Assembly (NCBI GenBank): GCA_020832905.1
Contig: JAJHRG010000001.1
Coordinates: 360,617-424,616 of the forward strand
Origin: Thermoproteota archaeon
GTDB taxonomy: Archaea; Thermoproteota; Methanomethylicia; Methanomethylicales; Methanomethylicaceae
Length of the DNA: 64,000 nucleotides
Direction of reading: 5' to 3'
The notes beneath the pieces are model-generated. The model worked only from the letters and a program-made list of their open reading frames with translations, searched no databases and was not told where the DNA came from. The translations under genes and the position numbers were made by a program. This document shows positions 4,649 to 22,373 of this stretch, piece by piece (the first letter of the stretch is position 1; each line of letters begins with the position of its first letter).

Positions 4649-4933
4649 ATGGCCCCTCCTTTATTTACACGACTTTACATTAATGGTCAAGTACTTTATG
4701 AAAAAGTAAAAGAAATTGCAAAAAATCAAAATTATGAAATTACTTATGAAGATTCTATAAATAAAATTCTTCATATTCATAAAAAAGCTCATGGTAGAAC
4801 AATTCATTTAATTATCTATATTGGTGATGGAAAAGATAGAAGTTTAGCTATAGATGTAAAACCTGGCTATGAAGGATTATCTATGGATTATGGAAGAAGA
4901 TTTCTTGAAGAAATTAAAAAAGTAGCTAGGTGA
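4649..4933 (+). CDS. hypothetical protein, with weak resemblance to half of a GNAT fold
   Basis: 94 aa, non-low-complexity ORF immediately upstream of the Mrp/hydrogenase string. No confident motif. Confidence 0.35.
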   Translation: MAPPLFTRLYINGQVLYEKVKEIAKNQNYEITYEDSINKILHIHKKAHGRTIHLIIYIGDGKDRSLAIDVKPGYEGLSMDYGRRFLEEIKKVAR

Positions 4934-4937
4934 TATT

Positions 4938-5243
4938 ATGAGTTTCTTTTGGGGAATTCGTTTTTGGTTAAGACTAATAAGAGAAATATTAGCATGTATA
5001 ATAGATGTAAGTAAAAGATGTTTAAATGGTGATATTGATCCAGTAATTCAATCAGTAGATTCAATATTAGCTAAACCAATTTCTCAAACAATGTTAGCTA
5101 ATAGTATAACATATACACCTGGTACTGTTACTATAGATGTAAATGTATCAGAAAAGCGTATATTTGTAGGTGCTATTAATCCAAGAAAAAGAGAAGAAAT
5201 AATTCCATTAGAACCATATGTAGAAAGGTGGCTTGGAAAATGA
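4938..5243 (+). CDS. Mrp/Mbh-type antiporter-module subunit, MrpE/MbhA-like
   Basis: 101 aa with an ITYTPGTVTIDV motif resembling the MrpE TPGT signature. First gene of a translationally coupled membrane-subunit string. Confidence 0.55.
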   Translation: MSFFWGIRFWLRLIREILACIIDVSKRCLNGDIDPVIQSVDSILAKPISQTMLANSITYTPGTVTIDVNVSEKRIFVGAINPRKREEIIPLEPYVERWLGK

Positions 5244-5542
5244 TTGATGCATTAGTATTAGAAAAAATTGCAGATTTAACTTTCTTCTTTGGAGCATTTA
5301 TATTCATGATAGCAACAGCTTTTGCTGGACTAGGTGCTTTAAGACTTGCTCTTAAAGGTGAAACTGTTACATCACTTATGGGAGTAAGTGCTCTAACTAC
5401 AGCTGCTGGTGTAAGCTTATATATAATACAAATTATATTTGAAGTGGAATTTGCTAGAGATACAGCAATAGCTTTATTAATTCTTGGATCAGTTGGTACT
5501 ATAATATTTGCAAGATTATTTAGAATGGAGGAAGGAGAATGA
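5228..5542 (+). CDS. Mrp/Mbh-type small membrane subunit, MrpF/MbhB-like
   Basis: 104 aa, three predicted TM helices, overlapping start-stop coupling with its neighbours. Confidence 0.5.
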   Translation: MAWKMIDALVLEKIADLTFFFGAFIFMIATAFAGLGALRLALKGETVTSLMGVSALTTAAGVSLYIIQIIFEVEFARDTAIALLILGSVGTIIFARLFRMEEGE

Positions 5543-6018
5543 TATCTGAACTTTTTGTAGTAATATATGCAATTATTATAATTGGATTTGTGGCATGGAA
5601 TATAAAAAAAGGATCATTTGTCATAGAGCCTAGTAAGTTAGTAATTGCTATTATAATATTATCAATAATTGCTACAATTATATTAAGTCGTAATATTGAT
5701 ATTTATGTTACTATTCGTTCTATTGCAAAAATTTTAGCTGGTGGTATAATGTTTGCTGGAGTTTTACCTATGATTTCTGCAGGAATTGGTTTATTTAGAT
5801 TTGGTGATGAATATGGTCCAAATATTTTCTATGCTAGAAATCATATTACTGGTGTTATTGATACTACAGCTTCTCTTGTTATGATTTTTGCTGGTTTATT
5901 AATATTTAGATTAGATTTAGTTGCTGTAGGATTTTTCTTCTTTATATTAATACCATATGTTGGTAATGCTTTAGCTAATGCTTATTATTATTCATATCAA
6001 AGGAGGTTAAAAGAATGA
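5539..6018 (+). CDS. Mrp/Mbh-type membrane subunit, MrpG/MbhC-like
   Basis: 159 aa hydrophobic protein with a 4-nt overlap with the flanking genes. Confidence 0.5.
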   Translation: MISELFVVIYAIIIIGFVAWNIKKGSFVIEPSKLVIAIIILSIIATIILSRNIDIYVTIRSIAKILAGGIMFAGVLPMISAGIGLFRFGDEYGPNIFYARNHITGVIDTTASLVMIFAGLLIFRLDLVAVGFFFFILIPYVGNALANAYYYSYQRRLKE

Positions 6019-6278
6019 TAGAATTATCTTCAAGTTTCATGATAACTGCATATGTTATGTTAATTGCAATAACTATTGGTGCTATTGCTGCTTTACTTCA
6101 AAAAGATCTATTAAGAGCTGCTTTTATTTCTGGAGCAGAAAGTATTGCTCTTGCTTTCTTTTTCCAAGCTTTACTTGCACCAGATTTAGGATTAACACAA
6201 GCAATTGTTGGTACAGTTCTTTTGCCAGGAATTATAATTCTTGGTATATTTAAAACAAGGAGGACTGAAGAAGAATGA
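6015..6278 (+). CDS. Mrp/Mbh-type small membrane subunit
   Basis: 87 aa, two to three TM helices, coupled starts. Confidence 0.45.
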   Translation: MIELSSSFMITAYVMLIAITIGAIAALLQKDLLRAAFISGAESIALAFFFQALLAPDLGLTQAIVGTVLLPGIIILGIFKTRRTEEE

Positions 6279-6649
6279 TTGAAGTTACTATACAATTACT
6301 AGGATTTATTGCAGCAGCAATACTTATTGTAGTAGGTATAGGAGGAATGTTATTCTTAGATAATTTAATTAAAAAAATAATTGCATTTACATTACTTTCA
6401 GATGGTGTTAATTTATTACTTGTTGCACTTGCATATAGAGAAGGAGGAATAGTTCCTATTTTACTACCTGGTATGTCTATATCTGATTTTACTTCAAGAG
6501 CAATTTTAGTTTTTCCTGCAGGAATAGTTTTAACCAATATAGTAATAGGTGTAAGTACTACAGCTATACTTGTAGCTTTAGTTATAATGCTTTATAGAAG
6601 ATATGGAACTTTAAAAGCTTCTGTTATATTAAAAGGTGAAAGAAGATGA
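6275..6649 (+). CDS. MrpC/NuoK-like membrane subunit
   Basis: 124 aa. The three-TM pattern and sequence IAFTLLSDGVNLLLVALAY resemble NuoK/MrpC. Confidence 0.6.
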   Translation: MIEVTIQLLGFIAAAILIVVGIGGMLFLDNLIKKIIAFTLLSDGVNLLLVALAYREGGIVPILLPGMSISDFTSRAILVFPAGIVLTNIVIGVSTTAILVALVIMLYRRYGTLKASVILKGERR

Positions 6650-8142
6650 TAGAAAGTATTTCAAATCTTTGGTCAATTCCATTATTAGTAATAATTCCTA
6701 TGTTAACAGCTATAATAGTAAACTTCCTTTATGATAAAGCTATAAAACCTATTGCTATTTCTTCTGCTATAGTAATATTAATAATCTCTATAATTTCACC
6801 TTATGGTTATCATTGGTTCTGTGGACATCCTGCTTTAAATCCAGAGACTTTAACATTTACATTTAATCCTAATATTTTTGGATATAAGCTTTCATTAGAA
6901 TTTATTTTTGGTCCTTTACAGCATATAATGATCTTTATATCATCTTTAATATTACTTTTCTGTGTTATATTATCAACAATAGGATTAACAAAACATCAAG
7001 GTCCATATATAGCTTTATTATTCCTTCTTTTCATGTCTTCTGCTATAGTAATAATGGTAAATGATCTTTATCATTTATGGATTGCTGTAGAAATAGGTAG
7101 TCTTATAGTAGTTGGTGTAGCTGCAGCTTCTGGTACAAGTATTAGTCATAAGGCTGCTTTAAAATATGGTTTATTTTCTGCTATAAGTGGAGCTGGATTA
7201 GCTGTCTCATTGGCATTAATACTTGGATTAACAGGATTTGCAAATATTTCAGATGCTATAATGTATTTAAAGCAATTTAATATTGGAGAAATGTCTACTG
7301 TTTTGTATATAGCATTTGGATTTTTTGTACTTTCTTGGATGTATGCAGGAGGATTAGCTCCTATTCATCCACTAAAATCTGAAGTTTATGGAGCTTCATA
7401 TCCTCATGCTACTACATTATTACAAGCTCAATCAAAACTTATGCTTGTAGCTATAGGTATTATAATGCTTCGTTTATTTGGTATGCTTCCTTTTGTAAAA
7501 GAAGTTATGATTTTTCTTAGTGTTATAACAATGATGATTGGTGTAATAATGGCTTTGATACAAATAGATTTCAGATGGATTATTGCTTATTTAATAATAA
7601 GTCATAGTGGTTTTGTAACTTTAGGTATAGGACTTGGTACTTATGAAGGATTAATTGGAGGAATATTTCAAGCAGTAAATGATATAATATATATGACTAT
7701 ATTACTACTTTGTTGTGAAGCATTATTTTACTTTGGAGGAAAAACTTCAACAAAAGAAGCTTATGGTATTGCAAAGAAATCACCTTTTATTGCTACAGCA
7801 ACAATATTAGGTGCTATTGCAGCTTCAGGTATACCACCATTTAATGGTTTTCAAAGTGAAATAATATTAATTCAAGCATGCTTAAAAGAAGGTTTTCCAG
7901 AAATTGCTGTTTTAATACTTATGGTATCAGTAACTACATTTATTGCTTTATTAAGAGGAATTTATAGGATATTCTTAAAGCCACCTGAATTACAAAGTTA
8001 TGATGATTCTAATGTTGATTTACCAAAAGTTCTTATTATTGGTATTATTATATTTATTGTTCTCTCAATTATAATAGGTATATATCCTGATATTGTATTG
8101 AGATTCATTATTCCAGTAGTAAAGGAGGTTCTTTCAATATGA
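6646..8142 (+). CDS. MrpD/NuoL/NuoN-like proton- or sodium-translocating antiporter subunit, MbhH-like
   Basis: 498 aa polytopic membrane protein with the length and conserved mid-region typical of the MrpD/complex-I antiporter-like family. Confidence 0.75.
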   Translation: MIESISNLWSIPLLVIIPMLTAIIVNFLYDKAIKPIAISSAIVILIISIISPYGYHWFCGHPALNPETLTFTFNPNIFGYKLSLEFIFGPLQHIMIFISSLILLFCVILSTIGLTKHQGPYIALLFLLFMSSAIVIMVNDLYHLWIAVEIGSLIVVGVAAASGTSISHKAALKYGLFSAISGAGLAVSLALILGLTGFANISDAIMYLKQFNIGEMSTVLYIAFGFFVLSWMYAGGLAPIHPLKSEVYGASYPHATTLLQAQSKLMLVAIGIIMLRLFGMLPFVKEVMIFLSVITMMIGVIMALIQIDFRWIIAYLIISHSGFVTLGIGLGTYEGLIGGIFQAVNDIIYMTILLLCCEALFYFGGKTSTKEAYGIAKKSPFIATATILGAIAASGIPPFNGFQSEIILIQACLKEGFPEIAVLILMVSVTTFIALLRGIYRIFLKPPELQSYDDSNVDLPKVLIIGIIIFIVLSIIIGIYPDIVLRFIIPVVKEVLSI

Positions 8143-8465
8143 CATCAACTGAAACCTTTTATGAAAAATTAAAAAAATGGTTAGATAGTTTTATAACTGG
8201 AAGTGGTTATACAAGCATAACAACTGGATACATAACAGGAGAATTACAATTTTTACTATTCATAATAGTATTATCAGTATTCTTCAGATTATTTTCAATT
8301 CCATTAGCAATTATATTACTTATTTTTACTACAGTTTTTGCATTATATTTTTCACCAGTAATAAAAGATGTAGAAAAGGAAAATATGAATGATTTAAATA
8401 GAGTATTGTATTGGATGGTCATATACTTTGCAATTATAATCGCTATAACTCTATGGGGTGGATAA
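8139..8465 (+). CDS. small membrane subunit of the hydrogenase/Mrp module
   Basis: 108 aa, hydrophobic, coupled start. Confidence 0.4.
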   Translation: MTSTETFYEKLKKWLDSFITGSGYTSITTGYITGELQFLLFIIVLSVFFRLFSIPLAIILLIFTTVFALYFSPVIKDVEKENMNDLNRVLYWMVIYFAIIIAITLWGG

Positions 8466-9291
8466 TATGGAGGAATTAAAAGGAAAAAGAGGAATAATTG
8501 CATTAATAGCATTAATAATTATAACCATAGGATTTCTTTCTTCACTTATAAAATTAACAGGAAGAGTAAATCCTGGTATTAGTGAAGTATATAATGCACT
8601 TGCATATTTAGTTGCTCCAAATAATTTAGCTACATGGGTTTATGATTGGCGTGGTTTTGATACATTACTTGAAACTGCAGTAATATATGTTGGTGGATTA
8701 GTTTCTGCTCTTGCTATAGGAAGAGGAGTAGTACAAATGAAAAAATGTAAGCAAGAATCACCAGTTACCTCCAAACCCTTAGAATTCAGAACAGAATCTC
8801 TTACAGTAATATTAAAATATCTTGGAATTCCTGCATCAATTCTTCTCCTTTCATATGGTATAATGGTAGTAACTGGTTCTTCTACTTCTGGTGGTGGAGG
8901 ATTCCAATGTGGTGTAATAATGACATCTGGATACTTATTAGCTGCAATACTTTATGGAAAAGATACTCCAATAAAATTTGGAAAAAGATTCATAATAGGA
9001 ATTGGTGCAATCGGACTTGGTGGTTATGCATTATTAGGTCTTCCAGGTTATTTAGTAACAGGATATTGGCAATATAATATTGGTGCAGATGTATGGGGAT
9101 TAGCTCCTAGTATATTACATATAATATTTGGAGATCCATTTAGATTATCATTAATTTTAAAAGAAGGAGTATTTTATTCAACTCCTGGCATTATTCCATT
9201 AATAAATATTGCTGAAGCTTTTAATGTAATTGGTGCTATTGGTTTAATATATTTTGCATTCTTATATGGTTGGTCTGATGAAGGTGAATAA
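8458..9291 (+). CDS. membrane subunit of the hydrogenase/Mrp module, MrpB/MbhG-like
   Basis: 277 aa, multiple TM helices, Gly-rich loop SSTSGGGGF. Confidence 0.45.
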   Translation: MDNMEELKGKRGIIALIALIIITIGFLSSLIKLTGRVNPGISEVYNALAYLVAPNNLATWVYDWRGFDTLLETAVIYVGGLVSALAIGRGVVQMKKCKQESPVTSKPLEFRTESLTVILKYLGIPASILLLSYGIMVVTGSSTSGGGGFQCGVIMTSGYLLAAILYGKDTPIKFGKRFIIGIGAIGLGGYALLGLPGYLVTGYWQYNIGADVWGLAPSILHIIFGDPFRLSLILKEGVFYSTPGIIPLINIAEAFNVIGAIGLIYFAFLYGWSDEGE

Positions 9292-9550
9292 AATGATGCT
9301 TGGAGAAATTACTCCTTCTTTAATTGCTCTTATATTAGGTATAATCTTTGGTACACAATTAGATTATAAACTTACAAAAGGAATGATAATATTATTGATT
9401 AGTTTTAGTATAGTAGCTAGTTTACTATTTGGAGTTTTTACATTTACATATTCTATCTATGGAGGATATATTGCACCTGGTATAGGATTTTCTATGCCTT
9501 TAATTACTGCTACTATTGGTATTATTATAGGAAAATTATTAAAAGGGTGA
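9254..9550 (+). CDS. small membrane subunit of the hydrogenase/Mrp module
   Basis: 98 aa, three TM helices. Confidence 0.4.
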   Translation: MHSYMVGLMKVNKMMLGEITPSLIALILGIIFGTQLDYKLTKGMIILLISFSIVASLLFGVFTFTYSIYGGYIAPGIGFSMPLITATIGIIIGKLLKG

Positions 9551-9554
9551 TATT

Positions 9555-9992
9555 ATGTATCTTACAACTACTGATTGTGATAAATGTGGAAAATGCTGGG
9601 AAGTATGTCCTACTGATTGTATAATACATCCTGATGGCTATCCTTTTAGTTGTACTACTTGTGGTGAATGTTTAAAAGCATGTCCAGTTCATGCTATTAA
9701 ACGAAATAGATTTGGTGGATTATATGTAGATAGAAGAAGATGTACTCTTTGTGGTGAATGTGTTAAACATTGTCCATTTGGATTTGCTAAAATTGTATTT
9801 GATGAAAATTTAGGAAGAGAAGTTGTAAAAGGAATATGTGTAAGATGTGGAAAATGTGTAAAAGTATGTCCAAAAAATGCAAGATTTGATATAGGAAGAT
9901 ATATTCCTCATCCAATAGATTATTCATTTGTTCTTGAAATTACTACACCTGAAAAATTAAAAGAAATTCTTAAAGGAGTTGTTAGTAAATGA
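9555..9992 (+). CDS. polyferredoxin with four CxxCxxCxxxCP [4Fe-4S] motifs
   Basis: 145 aa containing CDKCGKCWEVCP, CTTCGECLKACP, CTLCGECVKHCP and CVRCGKCVKVCP. Confidence 0.8.
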   Translation: MYLTTTDCDKCGKCWEVCPTDCIIHPDGYPFSCTTCGECLKACPVHAIKRNRFGGLYVDRRRCTLCGECVKHCPFGFAKIVFDENLGREVVKGICVRCGKCVKVCPKNARFDIGRYIPHPIDYSFVLEITTPEKLKEILKGVVSK

Positions 9993-11011
9993 AAATCTCA
10001 AAAAGAAAGATCTATAGAGATTTCTCAAAATGCATATTATGTGGAAGATGTAGAAATGTATGTCCTACAAATGCTATTAAATATGAAGTTAAATATAATG
10101 GATTATGTACACATTGTAATTTATGTGCAGAAATATGTCCTGTAAAAGCTATAGATTCTTATGAAGGAAAAATAAGTCAAGAAGAATATGGTAAATTATA
10201 TGTAAATTTGAAGAGTTATAATGAAAGAAAAATAAAATTAAATTGTGTTATGTGTATGAAATGTTATGAAGAATGTCCAGTTAATGCTATAAAGATAATT
10301 GATGGAAAATTAGAAATTAATAAAGGAAATGCTTTTCCATCTATTATAAATTGTAACTTATGTTCTTTATGTACTATGGTATGTCCAAATAATGCATTAA
10401 AATTTGAAATGAATAGAATTAAATTAAATCCTGAATTATGTACTCTTTGTGGTGAATGTATTAAGCATTGTCCAGCAAATACTATGTATCTTAAAGATAA
10501 ATATCCTGCAGGATATTGTGTTATGTGTGGTCGTTGTATAAAATCTTGTCCTGTTTCTGCATTATCTATAAAAACTATTACTTGGGATGGTGAAATAAAT
10601 ACATGTATAAAATGTGGTACATGTGTAAAAATATGTCCAGTTAATGCTATAAGTCTTAATCCAATAACTGATGATAAACCATTAGTTAATACAAATAAAT
10701 GTATTCTTTGTGAATTATGTGCTGCTTATTGTCCTGTTGATGGTATTCCTATATTATATACACTTAAAAAGAAAAAATTAGAACAATGGTCAATATCAAT
10801 AGATAGAAATCTCTGTATTGGATGTGGACTTTGTGTAGATGCTTGTAAGATATCACTTAAAGGAGATAATGCAATATATATTAATAAGGGATTAGCTTAT
10901 GTAAATAAAGATAAATGTATTGGATGTGGTGCATGTGCTATGACATGTCCAACTGATTGTATTAAATTAACTAAAATTTATGAAACAAAGGAGGTTGTTG
11001 CAATACCATGA
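9989..11011 (+). CDS. polyferredoxin with ten CxxCxxCxxxCP [4Fe-4S] motifs
   Basis: 340 aa carrying ten consecutive Cys4 ferredoxin motifs (CILCGRCRNVCP through CIGCGACAMTCP), an Eha/Ehb-like polyferredoxin architecture. Confidence 0.85.
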   Translation: MKISKRKIYRDFSKCILCGRCRNVCPTNAIKYEVKYNGLCTHCNLCAEICPVKAIDSYEGKISQEEYGKLYVNLKSYNERKIKLNCVMCMKCYEECPVNAIKIIDGKLEINKGNAFPSIINCNLCSLCTMVCPNNALKFEMNRIKLNPELCTLCGECIKHCPANTMYLKDKYPAGYCVMCGRCIKSCPVSALSIKTITWDGEINTCIKCGTCVKICPVNAISLNPITDDKPLVNTNKCILCELCAAYCPVDGIPILYTLKKKKLEQWSISIDRNLCIGCGLCVDACKISLKGDNAIYINKGLAYVNKDKCIGCGACAMTCPTDCIKLTKIYETKEVVAIP

Positions 11012-11493
11012 TTACTTTATTAAGACTTATGCTTCAAGGAGCTTATAGAAATATTGCAAGAATATTAGCAAAAGCTGATAGAGCTACAAGTATTGAAATA
11101 AGAAATAAAGTTTTAAATCTATCTGTACCAGCTTGGGAAACTGTACTTGATGAAATGTGTATTGGATGTGGTGCATGTGAAAAAGTTTGTCCAACTAAGG
11201 CTATAACTATGATAAAATTAGATAAACCTGTAGAAATAATTGAAGGTTATAAAAGAGAAAAAGTTCCTAGAATAGATTTAATGAAATGTATTTTCTGTTT
11301 AAATTGTCATGATTTTTGTCCTATTTTTGCATTATTTGGAGAAGCAGCACCAATTCATGCAAGAGATGTAGGTAGTCCTAAATTAACTCTTCGTGAAATA
11401 CTTAAAAAGCCAATAAAAGCACCACCAGAAAAAATTGAAGAACTTAAAAAATTAATTCCATCTGAATTTTTTAGGAGTATAATAAGGAGGTAA
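11008..11493 (+). CDS. 2x[4Fe-4S] ferredoxin subunit, NuoI/MbhN/EhbL-like
   Basis: 161 aa with two Cys4 motifs, [12 protein letters not shown] and [12 protein letters not shown]. Confidence 0.7.
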
Positions 11494-11497
11494 GATA

Positions 11498-11947
11498 ATG
11501 GGATTAAAAGCTATTGCAAGAAAAAATGCAATTCATGCTATGTTGATTTATACTGGAGGATGTAATGGTTGTGATATTGAAGTTGTTAATGCTGTTTATT
11601 CTCCAAGATATGATATAGAACAATATAGAGTTCTCTTAACATGGAATCCAAGAGAAGCAGATGTACTTATTGTTACAGGATGTGTTACTTGGCAAATGGT
11701 TGAACCATTAAAAAAGATATATTCCTTAATACCTGAGCCTAAAGCAGTTGTTGCTGTTGGTGCATGTGCTATAAATGGTAATGTTTATAAAAATATGGTA
11801 GGAGAGATTGGAGTAAATGAAGAAATATTTGCACCAGTAGATAATATAATTCCTGTAGATGCTAAAGTACCTGGATGTGCTCCAAGACCTGAAGATATAT
11901 TAATGGGAGTTGTAAAAGTTATACCAAAATTAATGGAGGCACCATAA
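11498..11947 (+). CDS. group-4 [NiFe] hydrogenase small subunit, NuoB-like
   Basis: 149 aa. Carries the NuoB-fold proximal-cluster cysteines ([21 protein letters not shown]). Confidence 0.85.
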
Positions 11948-13117
11948 ATGTCTAAGAAGATAATAGAAAAAGAAATTTCCATAGGCCCAGTTCATCCTGC
12001 TTTAATTGAACCATATAGAATTAGATTTTTTGTAAATGATGAAATAGTTGAAGATTGTGAAATAAATATAAATATGGCATATAGAGGTATAGAAAGATTA
12101 TTAGAAGGTCTTCCTGTAGAAAAAGCATTATTAATTACAGAAAGAATTTGTGGAATTTGTTCAAATGTTCATGCATGGAATTCTGTTCGTGTTGTAGAAT
12201 CAGGTCTTAAAATAGAAGTTCCTGAAAGAGCTAATTATATAAGAGTTTTAATTAATGAAATTCAACGTATAGCAAGTCATTTAATATTCTTTGGACATGC
12301 TTTTGAGGTTATAGGACATGAAACTTTTGCCTATAGATCTTTTCTACTTAGAGAAGTATTTATGGATCTAATGGCTTATATTGGTGGTAATAGAGTAATG
12401 CCTTCTGTTCCTGTAATTGGAGGAATAAGACCAAGAGCAGATTTAACTGATACATTAAAAAGAGTAATATTAGAAAGAGTAAATGATTTTGAAAAGAAAT
12501 ATAAAGAATATGTTGATAGAATTCTTGCAGATCCCATGGTAATGTCAAGATTAACTGGTGTAGGATATTTATCAAAAGAAGATGCTATAAGATATCATGC
12601 AGTAGGACCAACATGTAGAGCTTCTGGAGTAAATTATGATGTAAGAACACTTATGCATGAATATAAACCATTTGATTTTGAAGTAATTGTACTTACAGAA
12701 GGTGATAATAGAGCAAGAATTGTTCAAAGAGCTCTTGAAATATTTGAATGCTTAAAAATAATTAGACAAGTAATAAAGAATTTACCAGAAGGACCTGTTG
12801 TAAATAGAAATTGGACTATAAGAGAAATGCCATTTACTACTGCATATTTTGAAGCCTTTAGAGGAGAATTAATGCATTCATATGCATTAGATTCTCAAGG
12901 ATTAATACGTAATTATAAAGTTAGAACACCAACACCTACTAATCTTGCAGCTATGGAAAAAGCATGTATTGGTGATCATATAACAGATGCTGTTGTAACT
13001 ATAGCAAGTTGTGATCCTTGTCTTACTTGTTGTACAAGAATTGAAGTAGTAGAATCCGGAAAAACTAAAGTTATGAGTGATATTGAAATTGTAAGAAAAT
13101 ATGGATGGAGGAGATAA
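11948..13117 (+). CDS. group-4 [NiFe] hydrogenase large subunit, NuoD-like with intact Ni-binding cysteines
   Basis: 389 aa. N-terminal L1 motif RICGICSNVH and C-terminal L2 motif DPCLTCCTR, followed by a 25-aa cleavable extension. Starts directly with the GPVHP segment, so no fused NuoC-like part. Confidence 0.85.
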   Translation: MSKKIIEKEISIGPVHPALIEPYRIRFFVNDEIVEDCEININMAYRGIERLLEGLPVEKALLITERICGICSNVHAWNSVRVVESGLKIEVPERANYIRVLINEIQRIASHLIFFGHAFEVIGHETFAYRSFLLREVFMDLMAYIGGNRVMPSVPVIGGIRPRADLTDTLKRVILERVNDFEKKYKEYVDRILADPMVMSRLTGVGYLSKEDAIRYHAVGPTCRASGVNYDVRTLMHEYKPFDFEVIVLTEGDNRARIVQRALEIFECLKIIRQVIKNLPEGPVVNRNWTIREMPFTTAYFEAFRGELMHSYALDSQGLIRNYKVRTPTPTNLAAMEKACIGDHITDAVVTIASCDPCLTCCTRIEVVESGKTKVMSDIEIVRKYGWRR

Positions 13118-14151
13118 ATATGGAAGTATTTTTGAAAATATTAATAGCTTCTATATTAGCTATAATTATTTCAGTTCCATACTCTTTAATACTTCCAGGA
13201 ATTGAAAGAAAAATTCAAGCAAGAATACAGCAAAGAATTGGACCACCTATACTTACTCCAGGATTATGGGCAGTATTAAAATTCTGGTATAAAAAGGATG
13301 TAGAACCTGTTGCTTATTTACCTAAATTCTATAAATCATTAATAATATTTGGTATTATCATATGTATCTTCCTATTTCTATTTTCTACACCATATTGGTG
13401 GCAAATATTAAGCTGGGGTAGTGTACTTGGTCTAATTGGAATGTTAAAATTAGAAGAATTTCTATATGTATTAATGGGTTCTCAATCTCAATCCTTTTTA
13501 TCTACAACAATGCCTGTACCAGATCTTGCTAAAGGTGCTAAAGGTATTGGTATATTTAGAGAGTTTGTAGAACAGCATTCTGCTGAAAGAGCAATAAAAA
13601 TGATGGCAGTAGGCTCACTTCCACTATATATTGCTCTTATAGTTCCTTTTGCTATAGCAAAAAGTGGAATGATTTCAGATGTAATAAAAATTCAAAATCC
13701 ATTATACTTTAATTCTTCATGGTTCTCTTTACCAATTCCATCTAGTCCAATAATATTTACAGTTCCAGGCTTTTTATCAGCTATTGTGTACTTTATAGGA
13801 TATGTCATATTACTAAATGAAAGACCTTTTAATATATTAAAAGCTAAAGTTGATGTAATTGAAGGAGGAATTCTTGAATATGCTGCAAAGTTAAGAGCAG
13901 GATATTACATAATTAGAAATCTTATGTTATTTATACTTTCAAGTATTTTTGTTACATTATTTATTGGAATTCCATTTGATCCATTCATACCTTTATGTAT
14001 GATTATAAACATAGTATTAAGCTTAATAATGCCAATAGCTCTTTCTGTATTTGTAGCATTTTCTCCAATATTTACTTTCCGTCAAATTTATCCAACTGCT
14101 ATTGGATTTTCTGCAATAGGAGCATTTGCTTTAATAATTTCTATGATATGA
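13105..14151 (+). CDS. NuoH-like membrane subunit of the hydrogenase, MbhM/EhbO-like
   Basis: 348 aa polytopic membrane protein. Its start overlaps the large-subunit gene by 13 nt. Confidence 0.7.
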   Translation: MEEINMEVFLKILIASILAIIISVPYSLILPGIERKIQARIQQRIGPPILTPGLWAVLKFWYKKDVEPVAYLPKFYKSLIIFGIIICIFLFLFSTPYWWQILSWGSVLGLIGMLKLEEFLYVLMGSQSQSFLSTTMPVPDLAKGAKGIGIFREFVEQHSAERAIKMMAVGSLPLYIALIVPFAIAKSGMISDVIKIQNPLYFNSSWFSLPIPSSPIIFTVPGFLSAIVYFIGYVILLNERPFNILKAKVDVIEGGILEYAAKLRAGYYIIRNLMLFILSSIFVTLFIGIPFDPFIPLCMIINIVLSLIMPIALSVFVAFSPIFTFRQIYPTAIGFSAIGAFALIISMI

Positions 14152-14160
14152 GGTGATAAT

Positions 14161-14412
14161 ATGCCAAAAATTGTTCTAAGAGGAAAACATGTAATAAATC
14201 TTGGTGGATGGATTGTAGAGAATGTAGCAAATCTACCATATAGAGATTATATTGTTGGAAATCCATTTGATGAACCTGTTAAAATTGAAGCACCTATATA
14301 TTCTATTGAGGATATAAATGCACTTAAAAAACTTGGTCTAATTGTTGAGCCTTTATTACCACATGAAAATCTTGTAGAAAAAATTAATAAAATAAAGTCT
14401 TTAATTAAGTGA
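14161..14412 (+). CDS. hypothetical soluble protein between the hydrogenase and ATP synthase genes
   Basis: 83 aa, no TM helix, with an SD-like aggtga sequence upstream. No recognisable motif. Confidence 0.4.
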   Translation: MPKIVLRGKHVINLGGWIVENVANLPYRDYIVGNPFDEPVKIEAPIYSIEDINALKKLGLIVEPLLPHENLVEKINKIKSLIK

Positions 14413-14417
14413 TAAAA

Positions 14418-14699
14418 ATGAAAATTGTTTTTATTGGTAATCCAGGGCTATCATATGGATATAAATTATTTGGTATAGAATGTATTTCTGTAACTTCAAA
14501 AGAAGAATTCTTAAAAGCAATTGAAAAAGTATTAAAAATGAATGATATTAGTATTGTACTATTAGATAGTGATTTCTCATCATTAGTAAAGGATTATATT
14601 CGTAAATTAAGAATGAAAGTATCAATCCCATTTATAATTGAAGTTCCTGGTTTGAAGACTATTCCAGAAGTAGATATTAAACCTATTTCAATAAGATAG
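14418..14699 (+). CDS. atpF: A-type ATP synthase subunit F
   Basis: MKIVFIGNPGLSYGYKLFGIE...IPFIIEVPG matches the archaeal AtpF pattern MKIAVIGD..GFRLAGV...PIIVEIPS. Start moved from the track GTG at 14409 to the ATG at 14418. Confidence 0.75.
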   Translation: MKIVFIGNPGLSYGYKLFGIECISVTSKEEFLKAIEKVLKMNDISIVLLDSDFSSLVKDYIRKLRMKVSIPFIIEVPGLKTIPEVDIKPISIR

Positions 14700-14711
14700 T
14701 AGGGATTAAAA

Positions 14712-15305
14712 ATGAGTAGTAATGTAGAAGCTTTTAAGATAATGGTTGATAAATTACTAAATGATACTAAAAATAAAGTAACTACAATCTTTAATAATGC
14801 ATTTGAAAATATTTTGAAAATACTTAGTGAATCTGAAAAATATGCTATTTCTAATTATAAGGAAATCTTATCTTCATATAAAGAAAGAGCAGAAATTGAG
14901 TCTAAAAAAGAAATTTCAAAAACAGAAATGGAATCTCGATTATATTTACTAACTCTAAAAGACTCATGTATTAATAAAGTTATTGAAAATGTAAAATCTA
15001 AATTAATTGAATATTGTAAAAGTGATGAATACATAGAAATTATTCTAGAAAAATTAAAGAAAATATCAAAAGAAATTCCTATAGAAATACTTCTTATGAA
15101 AGAAGATGATATTAAACGTATAGGTATTGATAAGCTTGAGAAAATTTTAGAATCTTCAGAAATAAAATCTTATCCTATTGAAATAGGTGGATTTATTATT
15201 ATATCTAGAAATGGAAAATTAACAATAAATAGAACACTTGATTACTTATTAGAAGCAGAAAAACAAGTTCTAAGATCAAAAATAGCATCAATTCTATTTA
15301 GGTGA
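14712..15305 (+). CDS. atpE: A-type ATP synthase subunit E
   Basis: 197 aa with a coiled-coil N-terminus and the C-terminal [24 protein letters not shown] segment typical of AtpE. Confidence 0.65.
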
Positions 15306-17071
15306 TAATAGTGAGAATTGGTAAAATTATAAGAATAAGTGGTCCTGTTGTACAAGCAGAAGGTGCTTTAGGTTTTGAAATGCATGAACTAGTAATGGTT
15401 GGAAATGAGGAATTAATAGGTGAAGTTGTTAGAATAGAAGGAGATATTATAACAGTACAAGTATATGAAGATACTGTTGGCTTAAAAGTAGGAGAACCTG
15501 TTAAAGGTTCTGGAATGCCTTTATCTGTAGAACTAGGTCCTGGATTAATACAAAATATATTTGATGGAATTCAACGTCCACTTACTATCATAAGAGAAGT
15601 AACTGGAGATTTTGTAAGAAGAGGAGTAAAAACAACAGCATTACCAAGAGATAAAAAATGGCATTTTATCCCACTAAAGAAAGTAGGAGATTATGTAAAA
15701 CCTGGTGAAATTATTGGAAAAGTTCAAGAAACACCATTAGTAGAACATAGAATTCTTGTTCCTCCAAATAGAGAAGGTAAAATAGAATATATAGTAGAAG
15801 AAGGTGATTATACAATAGAAGAAACTATTGCAAAACTTTCACTAAATAATACAAAATATGAATTAAAGATGTATCATAAATGGCCTGTAAGAAAGCCAAG
15901 ACCATATTTAGAACGTCTTGAACCAACAGAACCTCTTATAACAGGTCAAAGAATAATTGATACATTATTTCCAGTTGCTAAAGGAGGAGCAGTTTGTATT
16001 CCTGGAGGATTTGGTACTGGTAAAACTGTAACATCTCATCAACTTGCTGCATGGTCAGATGCTCATATAATTATATACATTGGTTGTGGAGAAAGAGGAA
16101 ATGAAATGACTGAAGTTTTAATAAACTTTCCAGAATGGAAAGATCCAAGAACTGGAAGACCATTAATGGAAAGAACAATATTAATTGCAAATACAAGTAA
16201 TATGCCTGTAGCTGCAAGAGAAGCTTGTATATATACTGGTGTAACAATAGCTGAATACTTTAGAGATATGGGATATGATGTTGCAGTAATGGCAGATTCT
16301 ACAAGTAGATGGGCTGAAGCATTAAGAGAAATTGCTGGAAGACTTGAAGAAATGCCAGCTGAAGAAGGTTATCCTCCATATCTTGCATCTAGACTTGGAG
16401 AATTTTATGAACGTGCTGGAAGAGTTAAAACATTAAGTGGATTATATGGATCTGTAACATTAATAGGTGCGGTTTCTCCACCTGGAGGAGATTTTTCAGA
16501 ACCTGTTACTGTTCATACAAAAAGATTTGTAAGAGCTTTTTGGGCATTAGATACTGCATTAGCAAGTATGCGTCATTATCCTGCAATAAATTGGTTAATA
16601 TCTTATTCTGAATATGTTGATTATGTTGAAAAATGGTGGAATGAAAAAACTCATGGAAATTGGAAGAACTTAAGATTAAAAGCTCTTGAAATTTTAAAAA
16701 GAGAAGATGAATTAAAAGAAATTATAAGATTAGTTGGTATAGAATCTCTTCCTGAAACTGAAAAATTAGTTCTTGAAACTGCAAGACTTTTAAGAGAAGG
16801 TTTTCTCCAACAAAATGCATATGATCCAATAGATACATATTCCTCACCAGAAAAACAATATAAGCTTCTTTATGCAATTCTTGAATTTCATAATATAGCA
16901 CTTAAAGCAATTTCAAAAGGTATACCTGTTTCAAAAATTATTTCATTAAAATCTATTTCTGAATTAGCAAGAGCAAGAATGAATATACCAAATGAAAAAG
17001 CTTATGAAATTGATAATATTTTAAAACGAATAGAAAATGAAATTAATAGTATTATGGAGGAATCATCATGA
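15302..17071 (+). CDS. atpA: A-type ATP synthase catalytic subunit A
   Basis: 589 aa. P-loop GGFGTGKT, the A-subunit-specific non-homologous region, and extensive conservation. Likely GTG start. Confidence 0.95.
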
Positions 17072-18441
17072 GCATAGAGTATAGAACTATACAGAAAATA
17101 AGTGGTCCTTTAATATTTGTAGAAGGAGTATCTGGAGTAGGATATAATGAACTTGTAGAAATAAGAGATCCAGAAGGAAATTTAAGAAGAGGAAGAGTTC
17201 TTGAAATTAATAGAAATATTGCAGTAGTTGAAGTTTTTGAAGGAACAACTGGTCTATCTATTACATCATCAACTGTAAGATTTCTTGGTAAGCCTTTAAC
17301 AATACCCCTATCAACTGAAATGCTTGGTAGAGTTTTCAATGGACTTGGAGAACCAATAGATGGTGGTCCTCCTCCATTTACAGAGGAATATAGAGATGTA
17401 AATGGATTACCAATGAATCCATATGCAAGAGATTATCCTACAAAGTTTATACAAACAGGTATATCTGCTATTGATGGAATGAATACATTAGTAAGAGGAC
17501 AGAAATTACCAATTTTTTCAGGATCTGGTTTACCTCATAATTTACTTGCAACACAAATAGCAAGACAAGCTACAATAGTTGGTGAAGAAGAAGGATTTGC
17601 TGTTATATTTGTAGCTATGGGTATAAAACATGATGAAGCTGAATTCTTTAAGAAAAGCTTTGAAGAATCTGGTGTATTAAAGAATTCAGCTTTATTTTTA
17701 AATTTAGCAGACGATCCTCCTGTAGAAAGATTAGTAGCACCAAGATGTGCTTTAACTTTAGCAGAATATTTAGCATTTGAACAAGATATGCATATATTAG
17801 TAATATTAACTGATATGACAAATTATGCTGAAGCATTACGTGAAATTAGTGCAGCAAGAGAAGAAGTTCCAAGTAGAAAGGGATATCCAGGTTATATGTA
17901 TAGTGATTTTGCATCTATTTATGAGCGTGCTGGAAGAATAAAGGGAAGAAAAGGAAGTATAACTCAAATGCCTATACTCACTATGCCAAATGATGATATA
18001 ACTCATCCAATTCCTGATCTTACTGGATATATAACAGAAGGGCAAATTGTACTTGATAGAGATTTACATAGACGTGGTATATATCCACCAATAAATGTTC
18101 TTCCAAGTCTTTCTAGATTAATGAAGGATGGAATAGGAAAAGGAAAAACAAGAGAAGATCATGGTCCAGTATCTAATCAGCTTTATGCTGCATATGCAAG
18201 AGCTCAAGAGTTAAGAATGTTAAGTACTATAATTGGAGAAGAAGGATTAACTGATAGAGATAGATTATATTTAAAATTTGGAGAATTATTTGAAAGAAGA
18301 TTTATAAATCAAGGTGTAAATGAGAATAGAAGTTTAGAGACTACACTAGATATTGCATGGGATTTACTTTCAATATTTCCAGAAAGTGAACTTACAAGAA
18401 TTCCAGATTACATAATAAGAAAGTACTATAAGAGGAAGTAA
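17068..18441 (+). CDS. atpB: A-type ATP synthase subunit B
   Basis: 457 aa. Strongly conserved AtpB sequence, for example [26 protein letters not shown]. Confidence 0.95.
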
Positions 18442-18444
18442 GCC

Positions 18445-19074
18445 TTGTCCTTAAAAGTTATACCATCTAAGATAAACTTAATTCGTTTTAGAAGAACTCT
18501 TAATTTTTTGATTAGAGTCCATGATCTTCTTGAAGATAAAAAAGAAATTTTACTTTTAGAAATAAGTAGAAGATATAATGAAACAATAAGATTAAGAAAA
18601 GAAGTTAATGAAATGCTGAAAAATGCATATGAATTTTTAAATAAAGCTAATGTAATAATGGGTAATAAAAAAATAGAAATGATTGAACCAATAAGTGAAT
18701 ATAAAATTGAAATTAAAAAAAGAAAAATTATGGGGATTTCCATACCTGCTATTTCTTTTTCTAAAGAGAAAAAGCCTATTTCCTATGGAATTTCTCAACC
18801 TACTGTACTACTAGATAATTTCATTGAAATTTTTGATAAATGTATTCCAATGTTATTAAGATTAGCAGAAATGGAAATGATTTTAATAAAGCTATTAGAA
18901 GAAGTTAAAAATACTCAAAAAAGAATAAATGCATTAGAATATGTTTTAATTCCTCGATATAAAAGCTTAATAGCATTTATATCATCTGTTTTAGAGGAAA
19001 GTGAAAGAGAAGAATTTGTAAGAATTAAAAAACTTAAAAGTATTTGGATGAAAAGGAGGGTAGTACATGAGTGA
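18445..19074 (+). CDS. atpD: A-type ATP synthase subunit D (central stalk)
   Basis: 209 aa, TTG start. Coiled-coil N and C termini and a conserved ALEYVLIPRY-type motif. Confidence 0.8.
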   Translation: MSLKVIPSKINLIRFRRTLNFLIRVHDLLEDKKEILLLEISRRYNETIRLRKEVNEMLKNAYEFLNKANVIMGNKKIEMIEPISEYKIEIKKRKIMGISIPAISFSKEKKPISYGISQPTVLLDNFIEIFDKCIPMLLRLAEMEMILIKLLEEVKNTQKRINALEYVLIPRYKSLIAFISSVLEESEREEFVRIKKLKSIWMKRRVVHE

Positions 19075-19207
19075 AGAGGAATTAAAAATAAAAGAAATTT
19101 ATGAAATGAAGAAAATTGAAATAAAAAAGCAAATTGAAGATGTTATTGATAAAATATCAAAAGAAATTGAAATGAAAAAAGAAGAAATATATAAAAGGGT
19201 TTTATAA
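19067..19207 (+). CDS. possible small, highly charged coiled-coil protein (46 aa), a stalk-like ORF not in the track
   Basis: Manual translation MSEEELKIKEIYEMKKIEIKKQIEDVIDKISKEIEMKKEEIYKRVL. Its start overlaps the atpD stop. Could be an AT-rich artefact. Confidence 0.2.
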   Translation: MSEEELKIKEIYEMKKIEIKKQIEDVIDKISKEIEMKKEEIYKRVL

Positions 19208-19227
19208 GTAAATTTTAATAAAAATAA

Positions 19228-19602
<375 letters not shown>

Positions 19603-19609
19603 TGATTAG

Positions 19610-21502
19610 GTGTACTTAATGTTCCGTCCAGAAAGAATATCAAAAACTTCTCTAATTTTTTTTAAATCTGATGTAGAAGAAGTTCTTAAAATATTAAGTA
19701 AACATGAAGCTTTTCATATAATTATAAAAGAAAATAATATAGAATCTAGAGATATAAATAAATTAAAATTATTAATTGAAAAAATAGATGATATAATAAA
19801 AAGAATAAAAAATATTTCTGGCGAAGTAGAAATAGAATCTCATTATCAAATTCTAGAATCAAAAGATATAACATCTTTAATTTCTAGTATAGAAAATGAA
19901 GTAATTAATTATGAGAATAAGGTAAAGGAACTTGAACAAATACTAAACTTAGAAAATTCACTTAGCTTTATTATTTCACTTTGGAGACCTATTGCTATTA
20001 AATTAAAGGAAATATTTCCAATTAAATTTTACTCAAAGTATTTCTCATTTATTGTTTTATATCAAAAAGAATATCGTCCTATAATACCTAATATTCCTCT
20101 TCCAAATATCATTATTAATATATCACAAAATCCTAACATAATATTATCGATTTGTTTTAAAAATGATGAATATAATATTAAAAAATATCTTGAAGAAGCA
20201 GGTTATGTAGAAATACCTAAGTTTAACAATATGCCAAAAGATATATTTGAAGTAAATGAAGTAATCAAACTTCTAGAAGATAAAATTAATGAAGTAACTA
20301 AAATAAAAAATGAGCTAATTTCTGATATTCCTAAAGTATTATCAAAATTATTCTACTTCAAATTAATTTTATCTGATATTCTTTCCATTGTTAATATTAA
20401 GGAAAGTTATTCTTTTGGAAGAAATTTAGTTATGATGGAAGGTTATGTTCCAACAAGAAATATTGATTTATTACTTAAAGATTTAAGAGAAAAATTAAAT
20501 GGTAGAATAATTGTAAATTATGTAGAAGAACATTCATCAAAAGATGTTCCTGTTATATTTAGATATCCTAAATTTATTTCATTATTTGAAAAAATAACAT
20601 GTTTATATGGTACTCCTTCATATAATGAAATAAATCCAACACCAATTTTAGCCATGACATTTCCCTTATTTTTTGGACTTATGTTTGGAGATATTGGACA
20701 TGGTATTATGTTATCACTTTTAGGATTATTTTTATATAAATATACAAAATCATTATCAAGAATTGGAATTTATCTTTCTATATGTGGTATATTTTCTGCT
20801 ATTATTGGTGGTTTTCTATATGGTGAAGCATTTGGTAAGCATATTTTCCATGGAATATTTTCACCTACTGAAGATTTTATGTCATTACTTAAATTTTCAT
20901 TATATATAGGTGTAGCTCATATTTCAATTGGTATATCAGTACAAATAATTAATAATTTAATACAGAATAAGAAGGTTGATGCATTTTTATTAAATTTACC
21001 AAGACTTATATTGTATATTTGTTTTATATACTTAGTATTTGGTTTTGGTTTAAATATAATGAGGTGGTTAGAAGGACCTATTTTAATAATGATTATACCT
21101 ATGGTATTTATGATGATTGGAAAGCCTATATGGGCTCTTATATCTCATGGGAAAAAAGAATTTCTTTCAGTTTTTGGAGAAGTAGGATTTGAAACTATTG
21201 ATACAGTAATTCGTTTTATTTCAAATACTGTATCATACTTAAGAATATTTGCAATGGTAATGGCACATATTTATCTTACAAATGTATTCTATAGCTTATC
21301 ATATATTGCTGGAGAAGGAATAATTGGAAGTATATTCTCATGGTCAATGGCAATAATAGGAAATATATTTGTTGTACTTTTAGAATCAATTGTGGCAATA
21401 GCTCAAGATCTTAGGCTTCATTTCTATGAGTGGTTTAGTAAATTCTTTGAAAATAATGGAGTAAAATTCTCTCCATTTAAATTAACAATATTAGCTAAAT
21501 AA
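19610..21502 (+). CDS. atpI: A-type ATP synthase subunit I (a)
   Basis: 630 aa with a soluble N-terminal half and a polytopic C-terminal half that includes a conserved Arg-containing helix. Confidence 0.8.
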   Translation: MYLMFRPERISKTSLIFFKSDVEEVLKILSKHEAFHIIIKENNIESRDINKLKLLIEKIDDIIKRIKNISGEVEIESHYQILESKDITSLISSIENEVINYENKVKELEQILNLENSLSFIISLWRPIAIKLKEIFPIKFYSKYFSFIVLYQKEYRPIIPNIPLPNIIINISQNPNIILSICFKNDEYNIKKYLEEAGYVEIPKFNNMPKDIFEVNEVIKLLEDKINEVTKIKNELISDIPKVLSKLFYFKLILSDILSIVNIKESYSFGRNLVMMEGYVPTRNIDLLLKDLREKLNGRIIVNYVEEHSSKDVPVIFRYPKFISLFEKITCLYGTPSYNEINPTPILAMTFPLFFGLMFGDIGHGIMLSLLGLFLYKYTKSLSRIGIYLSICGIFSAIIGGFLYGEAFGKHIFHGIFSPTEDFMSLLKFSLYIGVAHISIGISVQIINNLIQNKKVDAFLLNLPRLILYICFIYLVFGFGLNIMRWLEGPILIMIIPMVFMMIGKPIWALISHGKKEFLSVFGEVGFETIDTVIRFISNTVSYLRIFAMVMAHIYLTNVFYSLSYIAGEGIIGSIFSWSMAIIGNIFVVLLESIVAIAQDLRLHFYEWFSKFFENNGVKFSPFKLTILAK

Positions 21503-22370
21503 TAAACTCTTGAACTATTGTACTTGGCGTAATTCCTCTTTCTATACTAATTGCAATTCTTATTATGTTCTTTATTTCAATTTTCTTCATTTCAATATAT
21601 GCAATAATCTCTCCTAATCCTACATAATCTTCATAATATATTTTTTTCAATATTGGTATTAGTTTTTTTTCAAAATCTCTTTCTATTGCTCTTTGATTAT
21701 CTTTATATTTCTCCATACCTAATATTGATAAAGCTTTATCAATATTTTCTTCTTTTAATGCCTCAAAAAGTATTTTTCTATCAATTTTTCCTCCTTCTAG
21801 TATTATTAAACTTGTTAAAATATCCTTTCTTATGTTATTCTTTATTCCTCTTATTATTGTTAATATGTTATATTCATCTATTTTTAATGAGATGTAATCT
21901 TTTATTTTATTATAAATATCATATTTTTTTGCTAATTTTATGAACTTCAAAATTCTATTTTTAGCTATAAATGATATAGTAACTCCTGGTACTTCATATT
22001 CAATAATTTTCTTAAATTCTTCATTAGGCTTTAATTCAATTATCTCACTTAATAAACCTTTTTTATATTTCTCTATAACTGTTTTAGCAATTTCTTCTTC
22101 TAATTCTTGCTTTAATAATTCTAATAAATCTTTATAATATGGTACAATTTTTATAAACTCATTTATTTCATTATAGAATAATTCTAATAGCTTTTCTTCT
22201 ATAATTTTTGAATCAGGTTTTACTTCAGTTAATTCTGGATATATACCTCTCAATTTACTTATTAATTCATTTAAATCTCTCGAAGAAGTAAGTTCAATTA
22301 ATTGTCTTTCACTAAGCATTCTACTTCTTTTTGCAGAAGCTTTAATAGCTGTATATACTACATCACTCAA
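21495..22370 (-). CDS. atpC: A-type ATP synthase subunit C (V-type d homolog)
   Basis: 291 aa. The N-terminal YTAIKASAKRSRMLSERQL pattern resembles AtpC. Lies next to atpH. Confidence 0.65.
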   Translation of the reverse strand: MSDVVYTAIKASAKRSRMLSERQLIELTSSRDLNELISKLRGIYPELTEVKPDSKIIEEKLLELFYNEINEFIKIVPYYKDLLELLKQELEEEIAKTVIEKYKKGLLSEIIELKPNEEFKKIIEYEVPGVTISFIAKNRILKFIKLAKKYDIYNKIKDYISLKIDEYNILTIIRGIKNNIRKDILTSLIILEGGKIDRKILFEALKEENIDKALSILGMEKYKDNQRAIERDFEKKLIPILKKIYYEDYVGLGEIIAYIEMKKIEIKNIIRIAISIERGITPSTIVQEFII

Positions 22371-22373
22371 ATT

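Follow-up and report, generated by a model that had tools for sequence, protein, structure and literature searches.

The DNA analysed here, referred to below as the window, is a 64-kb stretch of contig JAJHRG010000001.1 from an archaeon of the Methanomethylicia (formerly Verstraetearchaeota), with an overall guanine-plus-cytosine (GC) content of 27.8%. On its plus strand, a string of 17 genes at 4649-14412 is colinear with ehbA-P, the genes of the energy-converting [NiFe] hydrogenase Ehb. The unit starts at 4649 (or at 4938, if counted from ehbA) and ends at 14412, and the segment 9555-14151 spans only ehbK-ehbO. It is very likely that the string encodes a complete Ehb in a low-GC, hot-spring lineage of Methanomethylicia that has been published with mcr genes and is predicted to be a methyl-reducing methanogen. 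The hydrogenase system is already known and annotated in public databases and is an ordinary Ehb, and the only mildly new point is the class-wide contiguity of ehb with the genes of an A-type ATP synthase among the Methanomethylicia loci examined.

Organization of the ehb unit

The string proteins were assigned to families by Pfam and NCBIfam profile matches judged against curated cutoffs, and synteny was compared by tblastn of all 17 string proteins against loci from reference genomes, among the matches listed. The loci compared are the ehb loci of Methanobacteriales, Methanofastidiosa, Hadarchaeota and Methanomethylicia, together with two loci (L065 and L073) that contain EhaO. In all four ehb-bearing groups, the order from ehbA to ehbP is the same as in the window. 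The plus-strand genes of the window run uninterrupted from 4649 to 21502, and all junctions between g01, with which the string opens, and atpD of the ATP synthase are overlaps or gaps of at most 12 nucleotides (nt). Three subunit models derived from Methanococcales (NF004922, NF005618 and NF004914) are matched above their cutoffs.

Three consecutive ferredoxin genes lie at the start of the segment 9555-14151. The first (9555..9992) encodes a protein of 145 amino acids with four CxxCxxCxxxCP motifs for [4Fe-4S] clusters, and the second (9989..11011), which overlaps it by 4 nt, encodes a polyferredoxin of 340 amino acids with ten four-cysteine motifs, nine of them in the CP form. The third, ehbL (11008..11493), encodes a two-cluster protein of 161 amino acids that is the equivalent of NuoI and MbhN (two motifs; NF004914, 187 bits against a cutoff of 163; NuoI family, 2e-15). 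Fifteen of the 16 CxxCxxCxxxC motifs carry the trailing proline, the exception being the motif at residue 276 of the 340-residue protein, which is followed by lysine. A six-frame scan of all 64 kb returns exactly 16 such motifs, all within 9555-11493 on the plus strand; confined in this way to three genes, the count is not a matter of chance. It reproduces the reading of 4, 10 and 2 motifs given in the preliminary description of this DNA, which had been made from the sequence alone. The three genes stand as described there, but they correspond to only two known subunits.

The 14[4Fe4S] polyferredoxin of Ehb is EhbK (Kaster et al., 2011; PMC3087415). It is the product of a single gene between ehbJ and ehbL in Methanobacteriales, Hadarchaeota and one Methanofastidiosia locus, where it has about 450 amino acids and 55-57 cysteines, and in tblastn the 145-residue protein of the window aligns to its N-terminal third and the 340-residue protein to its C-terminal two-thirds. 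Judged from these alignments and from the motif counts, the 4- and 10-cluster genes are the N- and C-terminal pieces of a split 14-cluster EhbK (4 + 10 = 14), and the 2-cluster gene is ehbL. The same 4+10 split is found in a 94%-identical relative (L063) and in loci L010-L012. In three other Methanomethylicia loci EhbK is divided over three genes (4+6+4), unlike the two of the window, and EhbK of Methanofastidiosum is also in two pieces. The division of EhbK into two genes is thus a variant common to relatives of the window lineage.

Downstream of ehbL, ehbM (11498..11947) encodes the NuoB-like [NiFe] small subunit of 149 amino acids (PF01058, 2.9e-30). It contains five cysteines, four of which are read from the translation as NuoB-type cluster ligands, and its identity is 59-69% to EhbM of other lineages and 49-52% to the genes in the EhaN position. 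The large subunit, of 389 amino acids, is encoded by ehbN (11948..13117; PF00346 and PF00374). It is followed by ehbO (13105..14151), encoding a NuoH-like membrane subunit of 348 amino acids with about eight transmembrane (TM) segments (PF00146, 6.3e-18) and 42-48% identity to EhbO of other lineages, and by ehbP (14161..14412), encoding the small soluble subunit that is specific to Ehb (PF10622, 62.7 bits against a cutoff of 27, E = 3.5e-17). This last gene is missing from the list in the preliminary description.

The genes upstream of ehbK encode the membrane arm. They begin with the MnhE-like ehbA (4938..5243; PF01899, 1.3e-14; NF004922, 109 bits against a cutoff of 99) and the MrpF-like membrane subunit ehbB (5228..5542, or from 5240 in the JGI annotation; PF04066, 2e-4; NF009254, 1.6e-13; about three TM segments). 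These are followed by the MnhG-like ehbC (5539..6018; PF03334, 3.8e-7), ehbD of the MbhD family (6015..6278; PF13244, 2.3e-14) and the NuoK/MnhC-like ehbE (6275..6649; PF00420, 5e-16; NF005618, 131.5 bits against a cutoff of 107). The antiporter subunit related to MrpD and NuoL-M-N is encoded by ehbF (6646..8142) and has 498 amino acids and about 14 TM segments (PF00361). Its best NCBIfam model by far is NF004920, 'energy conserving hydrogenase EhbF' (2e-113, 380 bits). With PF01058 (149 amino acids), PF00146 (348) and PF00361 (498), the small, NuoH-like and MrpD-like subunits of the preliminary description are all accounted for.

Between ehbF and the fused ehbH-ehbI lies ehbG (8139..8465), a protein of three TM segments assigned by this position and by a match of the identical gene in locus L001 to PF27305, the MJ1308 family. 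The ehbH-ehbI fusion (8458..9291) encodes 277 amino acids with a C-terminal MnhB domain (PF04039, residues 127-261); the 258-residue model NF009229 covers residues 10-265, while the 154-residue model NF004924 covers only residues 117-268. Fusion of EhbH and EhbI has been described as restricted to Methanococci, Methanofastidiosales and Methanomethylicales (Adam et al., 2022; PMC9635834). The last gene of the arm, ehbJ (9254..9550), encodes three TM segments and has an uncertain start (9254, 9266 or 9293). At a tblastn threshold of 1e-4, homologues of EhbG and EhbJ were undetected in the loci outside Methanomethylicia.

Within EhbF, the glutamate of TM5 (E149) is invariant across the EhbF proteins examined. 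The canonical TM7 lysine of MrpD and NuoL-M-N (KAGxFPxH) is replaced by alanine, glycine or glutamate in all of them, and an invariant lysine is found 11 residues downstream of that position (H-x-x-K). The TM12 residue is glutamate in Methanomethylicia, including the window, and in Methanofastidiosa and Hadarchaeota, but lysine in Methanobacteriales.

The string opens with g01 (4649..4933), which encodes a soluble protein of 94 amino acids without a Pfam or NCBIfam match and ends 4 nt before ehbA. Homologues with 36-88% identity are found directly 5' of ehbA only in Methanomethylicia loci, and g01 is not recognizable as EhbQ. This gene could encode an Ehb subunit peculiar to the lineage, or a regulator.

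Assignment of the hydrogenase to the Ehb class

The large subunit carries both nickel-binding motifs that had been reported for it, RICGICSNVH at residues 66-75 and DPCLTCCTR at residues 356-364, and with them all four cysteine ligands of the [NiFe] site; the second motif is followed by a C-terminal extension of 25 amino acids. Its NuoD-like GPVHP segment begins at residue 13, and there is no N-terminal NuoC-like domain. Alignments that begin at residue 9-10 of EhbN begin at residue 9 in Pyrococcus MbhL and at residue 194 in Escherichia coli HycE, which indicates that no NuoC-like domain is fused to it. A separate gene of this kind is likewise lacking, as previously stated, since none of the 17 string proteins matches the NuoC/30-kDa family at E <= 0.01. 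The ehb clusters of the same gene order are also without a NuoC-like subunit.

Identity of the window EhbN is 73-76% to EhbN of Methanomethylicus and Methanosuratincola and 49-57% to EhbN of Methanobacteriales, Methanofastidiosa, Hadarchaeota and Altiarchaeota, but 36-37% to EhaO and 34% to Pyrococcus MbhL. Neighbour-joining (40 sequences and 377 alignment columns; 200 bootstraps) puts the window protein inside the Ehb clade (bootstrap 100) and, within it, inside a Methanomethylicia subclade (100). A separate clade (100) unites the five labelled EhaO sequences. The Eha-type group is the sister of Ehb (96), and MbhL is placed elsewhere, outside Eha and Ehb. Compared with a library clustered at 50% identity, the protein has a single close representative (71% identity, 656 bits); no other exceeds 39% and 246 bits, and EhaO of Methanobacterium formicicum, with 241 bits, is among these. 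On this evidence from sequence and synteny the hydrogenase is classified as Ehb, rather than Eha or Mbh, a class that presumably corresponds to HydDB group 4i.

EhbA-Q of Methanothermobacter and Methanobacterium were reportedly described by Tersteegen and Hedderich in 1999. The Ehb clusters of Methanothermobacter and Methanobacterium resemble the window in their colinear ehbA-P, in the 14 and 2 [4Fe-4S] clusters of EhbK and EhbL, in the absence of a NuoC-like subunit, and in the C-terminal extension of EhbN after DPCxxCxxR, with EhbN identities of 49-55%. They have EhbK in one piece, unlike the window, and an EhbQ, which was not detected here.

Among solved structures, the nearest is that of Pyrococcus furiosus Mbh (PDB 6CFW), whose MbhL is the best PDB match of EhbN (179 bits) and whose MbhH is matched with 79 bits; the PDB copy searched contained no Eha or Ehb structure. 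Mbh shares with the window Ehb an Mrp-derived membrane arm, a core resembling NuoB, NuoD, NuoH and NuoI, and ferredoxin-to-H2 chemistry coupled to ion translocation. It differs in having the NuoC-like MbhK and in having neither a polyferredoxin nor EhbP. EhaA-T, in turn, is like Ehb in being rich in polyferredoxins, in occurring without NuoC and in being found in methanogens, whereas Eha loci have another gene order and contain neither EhbP nor the Mrp-like EhbA-F set.

The families of the membrane arm (MnhE, F, G, MbhD, MnhC, MrpD and MnhB) are common to Mbh, and Eha too has polyferredoxins (EhaP with 6 and EhaQ with 10 clusters; PMC3087415), but given the large-subunit identities and tree placement, the 16 ferredoxin clusters, the presence of EhbP, the ehb gene order K-L-M-N-O-P, the different order in L065 and L073 and the absence of a gene resembling MbhK or NuoC, there is next to no chance that the enzyme is an Eha-type (group 4h) or Mbh-type (group 4d) hydrogenase that resembles Ehb in its ferredoxin content only. 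The preliminary description had likened the core to Eha/Ehb more than to Mbh. That separation from Mbh stands, with the large subunit lying in the Ehb clade and apart from MbhL, and it is sharpened by the tree, the synteny and EhbP, which leave Eha out.

Three observations run counter to the picture of a complete and typical Ehb. EhbQ was not found in the string. The gene called ehbJ is assigned by position only; it has no match to a Pfam or NCBIfam family, and the annotations of L001 and L002 differ in its start. In addition, EhbF misses the curated cutoff of NF004920 (380 against 578 bits). A score of this size is to be expected in a distant lineage, and the sequences behind the model are apparently euryarchaeal, but the cutoff is missed all the same.

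The host lineage and its methanogenesis genes

The EhbN sequence of the window is identical to MCC6013195.1, deposited under 'Candidatus Verstraetearchaeota archaeon', and carries the name EhbN in IMG; it lies on metagenome contigs of hot-spring type with lengths of 256-650 kb. Its 90%-identity cluster includes TDA40047.1 / RZN56388.1, which is 95.8% identical to it. We take these two accession series to represent the sets of metagenome-assembled genomes (MAGs) published in 2019 by Hua and colleagues and by Wang and colleagues. Among EhbN relatives with readable DNA, all those with at least 94% identity have a GC content of about 28%, whereas those at or below 81% identity have 47-57%, as do the sister genera. 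The low GC content of the window lineage is reflected in third codon positions, where six genes (ehbN, ehbF, atpA, atpB, AOR and PGK) have 7-10% GC.

Five Verstraetearchaeota MAGs containing mcr have been described, and four of them have 46-47% GC (Hua et al., 2019; PMC6783470). The only low-GC member is GMQP bin_44, listed there with 28.1% GC and 1.17 Mb on seven scaffolds (PMC6783470) and obtained from the GMQP spring, reported at 85-90 C. Given the GC split among the EhbN relatives, TDA40047.1 almost certainly derives from GMQP bin_44. The published gene tables list one copy each of mcrA, mcrB, mcrG and mcrC for this genome, with the mcr scaffold at 29% GC, as well as mtaA (two copies), mtsA, mtrH, hdrD and hdrB (PMC6783470). 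They also list an 11-subunit fpo set and ehbA-P with an 'ehbH/I' entry; mvhA, mvhG, hdrA and hdrC are marked absent, and no other hydrogenase with a KO annotation was noticed in the rows examined (PMC6783470). Judging from the 95.8%-identical relative, the GC content and this literature, it is very likely that the population from which the window derives is itself a methanogen.

What tells against a methanogenic host is that no mcr was found in the window or beside it. As the preliminary description had noted, no methanogenesis family occurs among the window genes, and none is found in the 6.6 kb to its left, which hold housekeeping genes only. Furthermore, a metagenome scan for the motif GGVGFTQYA in AT-ending codons, a pattern chosen because of the 7-10% GC at third positions, returned 13 genuine mcrA genes, none of them from the samples of the window; these are 67-83% identical to the Methanothermobacter protein and of Methanobacteriales or Methanococcales type. 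In a tblastn search with M. marburgensis McrA as query, the window and 88 loci gave only the gene of a Methanobacteriaceae MAG (L023, 15976-17625, about 5 kb downstream of its ehbN), and thus none in a Methanomethylicia locus.

A non-methanogenic fermenter with a remnant Ehb, implied by the preliminary description, would account for this pattern in another way. In such an organism mcr would have been lost, and Ehb would dispose of electrons from the ferredoxin of AOR, POR and glycolysis as H2, in the manner of Mbh, while pumping ions for the ATP synthase. The window does contain AOR, a cupin-type PGI, GAPDH, PGK, an ACS-like ATP-grasp protein and fumarase without a methanogenesis gene, its ehb genes are joined to a string of ATP synthase genes, Ehb can outlast the loss of Mcr in other lineages (Adam et al., 2022; PMC9635834), and Ehb was found here in Hadarchaeota. 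Against this, the only published Verstraetearchaeota genome with 28% GC encodes mcrABGC, mtaA and mtsA and almost certainly the 95.8%-identical EhbN. Moreover, 64 kb is about 5% of a genome of 1.2 Mb, so the absence of mcr there tells little, and a 64-kb window cannot exclude mcr. Fermentation had been speculated upon for Methanosuratincola from a gene set of the same kind, yet the isolate Methanosuratincola petrocarbonis LWZ-6 grows only by H2-dependent methyl reduction and did not display such abilities (PMC12244365). An Eha/Ehb-type hydrogenase beside fermentation-looking genes is therefore no evidence for a non-methanogen, and a fermentative host is improbable. The preliminary description had also allowed that in a methanogen this would be an ordinary Ehb; this applies by way of the published GMQP bin_44, with the link to mcr running through the literature and near-identity.

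Culexarchaeia, considered as a host on account of the 'anaerobic generalist' gene set, were rejected, as published accounts give them group 4g and Ehe complexes and no Ehb, and the close matches of the window are all named Methanomethylicia or Verstraetearchaeota.

To our knowledge, Hadarchaeota and Altiarchaeota are not usually counted among the methanogens. Hadarchaeota MAGs (L018, L021 and L060) nonetheless contain ehb clusters, complete or partial, with a single-gene, 14-cluster EhbK, and Altiarchaeota MAGs (P0048, P0053 and P0062) contain EhbN homologues at 53-55% identity. Their occurrence agrees with the idea of a 'remnant' Ehb put forward by Adam et al. (2022).

Elsewhere in the window, the AOR gene (35275-37782, plus strand) encodes an 835-residue protein in which AFOR_N and AFOR_C are joined to a C-terminal domain resembling OMP decarboxylase and 3-hexulose-6-phosphate synthase. 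The fusion is unusual; its cluster-mates have 831-841 amino acids, and one of them is named HPS by UniRef.

Contiguity with the ATP synthase and the direction of the reaction

Contiguous with ehbP, Pfam matches identify an A-type ATP synthase on the plus strand at 14409..21502, in the order atpF, E, A, B, D, an open reading frame of 46 codons, K (subunit c) and I. The GTG start of atpF overlaps the stop of ehbP by 4 nt, whereas the corresponding tblastn matches are about 35 nt apart in the Methanomethylicia relatives. Together, g01, ehbA-P and atpFEABD, K and I form one uninterrupted string of 24 genes and about 17 kb, which is probably co-transcribed. The order ehbP-atpF-E-A-B-D recurs in all seven of the other Methanomethylicia loci that reach far enough (L009-L012, L014, L015 and L063). 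This adjacency was absent by tblastn from the loci of Methanofastidiosa, Hadarchaeota and Methanobacteriales examined, and the Ehb clusters of Methanothermobacter and Methanobacterium, where Ehb is anabolic in a CO2-reducing methanogen, have no adjoining ATP synthase genes.

In Candidatus Methanomethylicus and Methanosuratincola, the full arrangement is the same as in the window, from g01 through ehbA-P to atpF-E-A-B-D, with EhbH and EhbI fused and EhbK split, and the subunits are 58-80% identical. The original description of the class by Vanwonterghem in 2016 is said to have noted Ehb in Methanomethylicia already, and Ehb has been part of metabolic models of Verstraetearchaeota and Methanomethylicia since then. 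Later studies of this class recorded Ehb in the same gene order (Berghuis et al., 2019, PMC6421429; Adam et al., 2022, PMC9635834), and an analysis from 2022 dealt with how Ehb evolved, the EhbHI fusion included. The ATP synthase goes unmentioned in the paper that treats Ehb synteny in most detail.

Several features of the ATP synthase genes stand apart from the question of adjacency. The c/K subunit (19243-19602, plus strand; 119 amino acids) has an additional hydrophobic segment at its N-terminus, ahead of the usual hairpin, and its ion-binding carboxylate, a glutamate, is followed by alanine rather than threonine or serine. Directly after atpI, genes for subunits C (AC39 family, 291 amino acids) and H (AhaH-like, 107 amino acids) lie on the minus strand at 21495-22697, convergent with the string.

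EhbA-J form a membrane arm derived from an Mrp antiporter, with EhbF as its MrpD-like subunit. The mechanism proposed here builds on what is established for Ehb, for Mbh and for complex I. Electrons would pass between ferredoxin and the [NiFe] site by way of the clusters of EhbK and EhbL and the proximal cluster of EhbM, in a reversible reaction (2 H+ + 2 Fd(red) <-> H2 + 2 Fd(ox), where Fd is ferredoxin). This reaction would be coupled to the movement of Na+ or H+ through EhbO and the Mrp-like arm.

Both directions of this reaction have been proposed for Ehb in methanogens. In Methanothermobacter and Methanococcus, Ehb spends an ion gradient on the H2-driven reduction of ferredoxin for biosynthesis (PMC3087415), while in Methanosphaera stadtmanae it is thought to run in the H2-evolving direction, harvesting ferredoxin reduced by MvhADG/HdrABC (PMC7485788). 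For the window lineage, H2 uptake in vivo, in which the ion gradient would drive ferredoxin reduction, appears somewhat more likely; we lean this way because Mvh and HdrA are absent from GMQP bin_44 and no other KO-annotated hydrogenase was noticed in the rows of its gene table that were examined. The reduced ferredoxin would then feed the Fpo-like/HdrD system and biosynthesis.

Operation of Ehb mainly as an H2-evolving ion pump, in which reduced ferredoxin would build a Na+ gradient used by the ATP synthase encoded alongside, is a serious but less probable alternative. The precedent of Methanosphaera stadtmanae, itself a methyl-reducing methanogen, and the tight ehb-atp string kept across Methanomethylicia both speak for it. 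However, with mvhA, mvhG, hdrA and hdrC absent from GMQP bin_44 in the published gene table (PMC6783470), the Methanosphaera-type source of reduced ferredoxin would be missing, and an uptake enzyme would still be needed.

Beyond the lean towards uptake, the class-wide ehb-atp string and a sister genome that lacks Mvh and HdrA and shows no other KO-annotated hydrogenase in the table rows examined invite the more tentative, and on balance doubtful, proposal that Ehb is the central catabolic hydrogenase and the sole entry point of H2 in Methanomethylicia, rather than an anaplerotic side-enzyme as in Methanococcus and Methanothermobacter. Under this proposal, a coupling ion common to both would link Ehb functionally, and perhaps physically, with the ATP synthase. 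The contiguity is a synteny observation only, and as such it fits a bioenergetically central Ehb in this class. The class-wide joining of ehb and ATP synthase genes bears on the question of whether, in the methyl-reducing methanogens of the Thermoproteota, energy coupling may take place mainly at Ehb.

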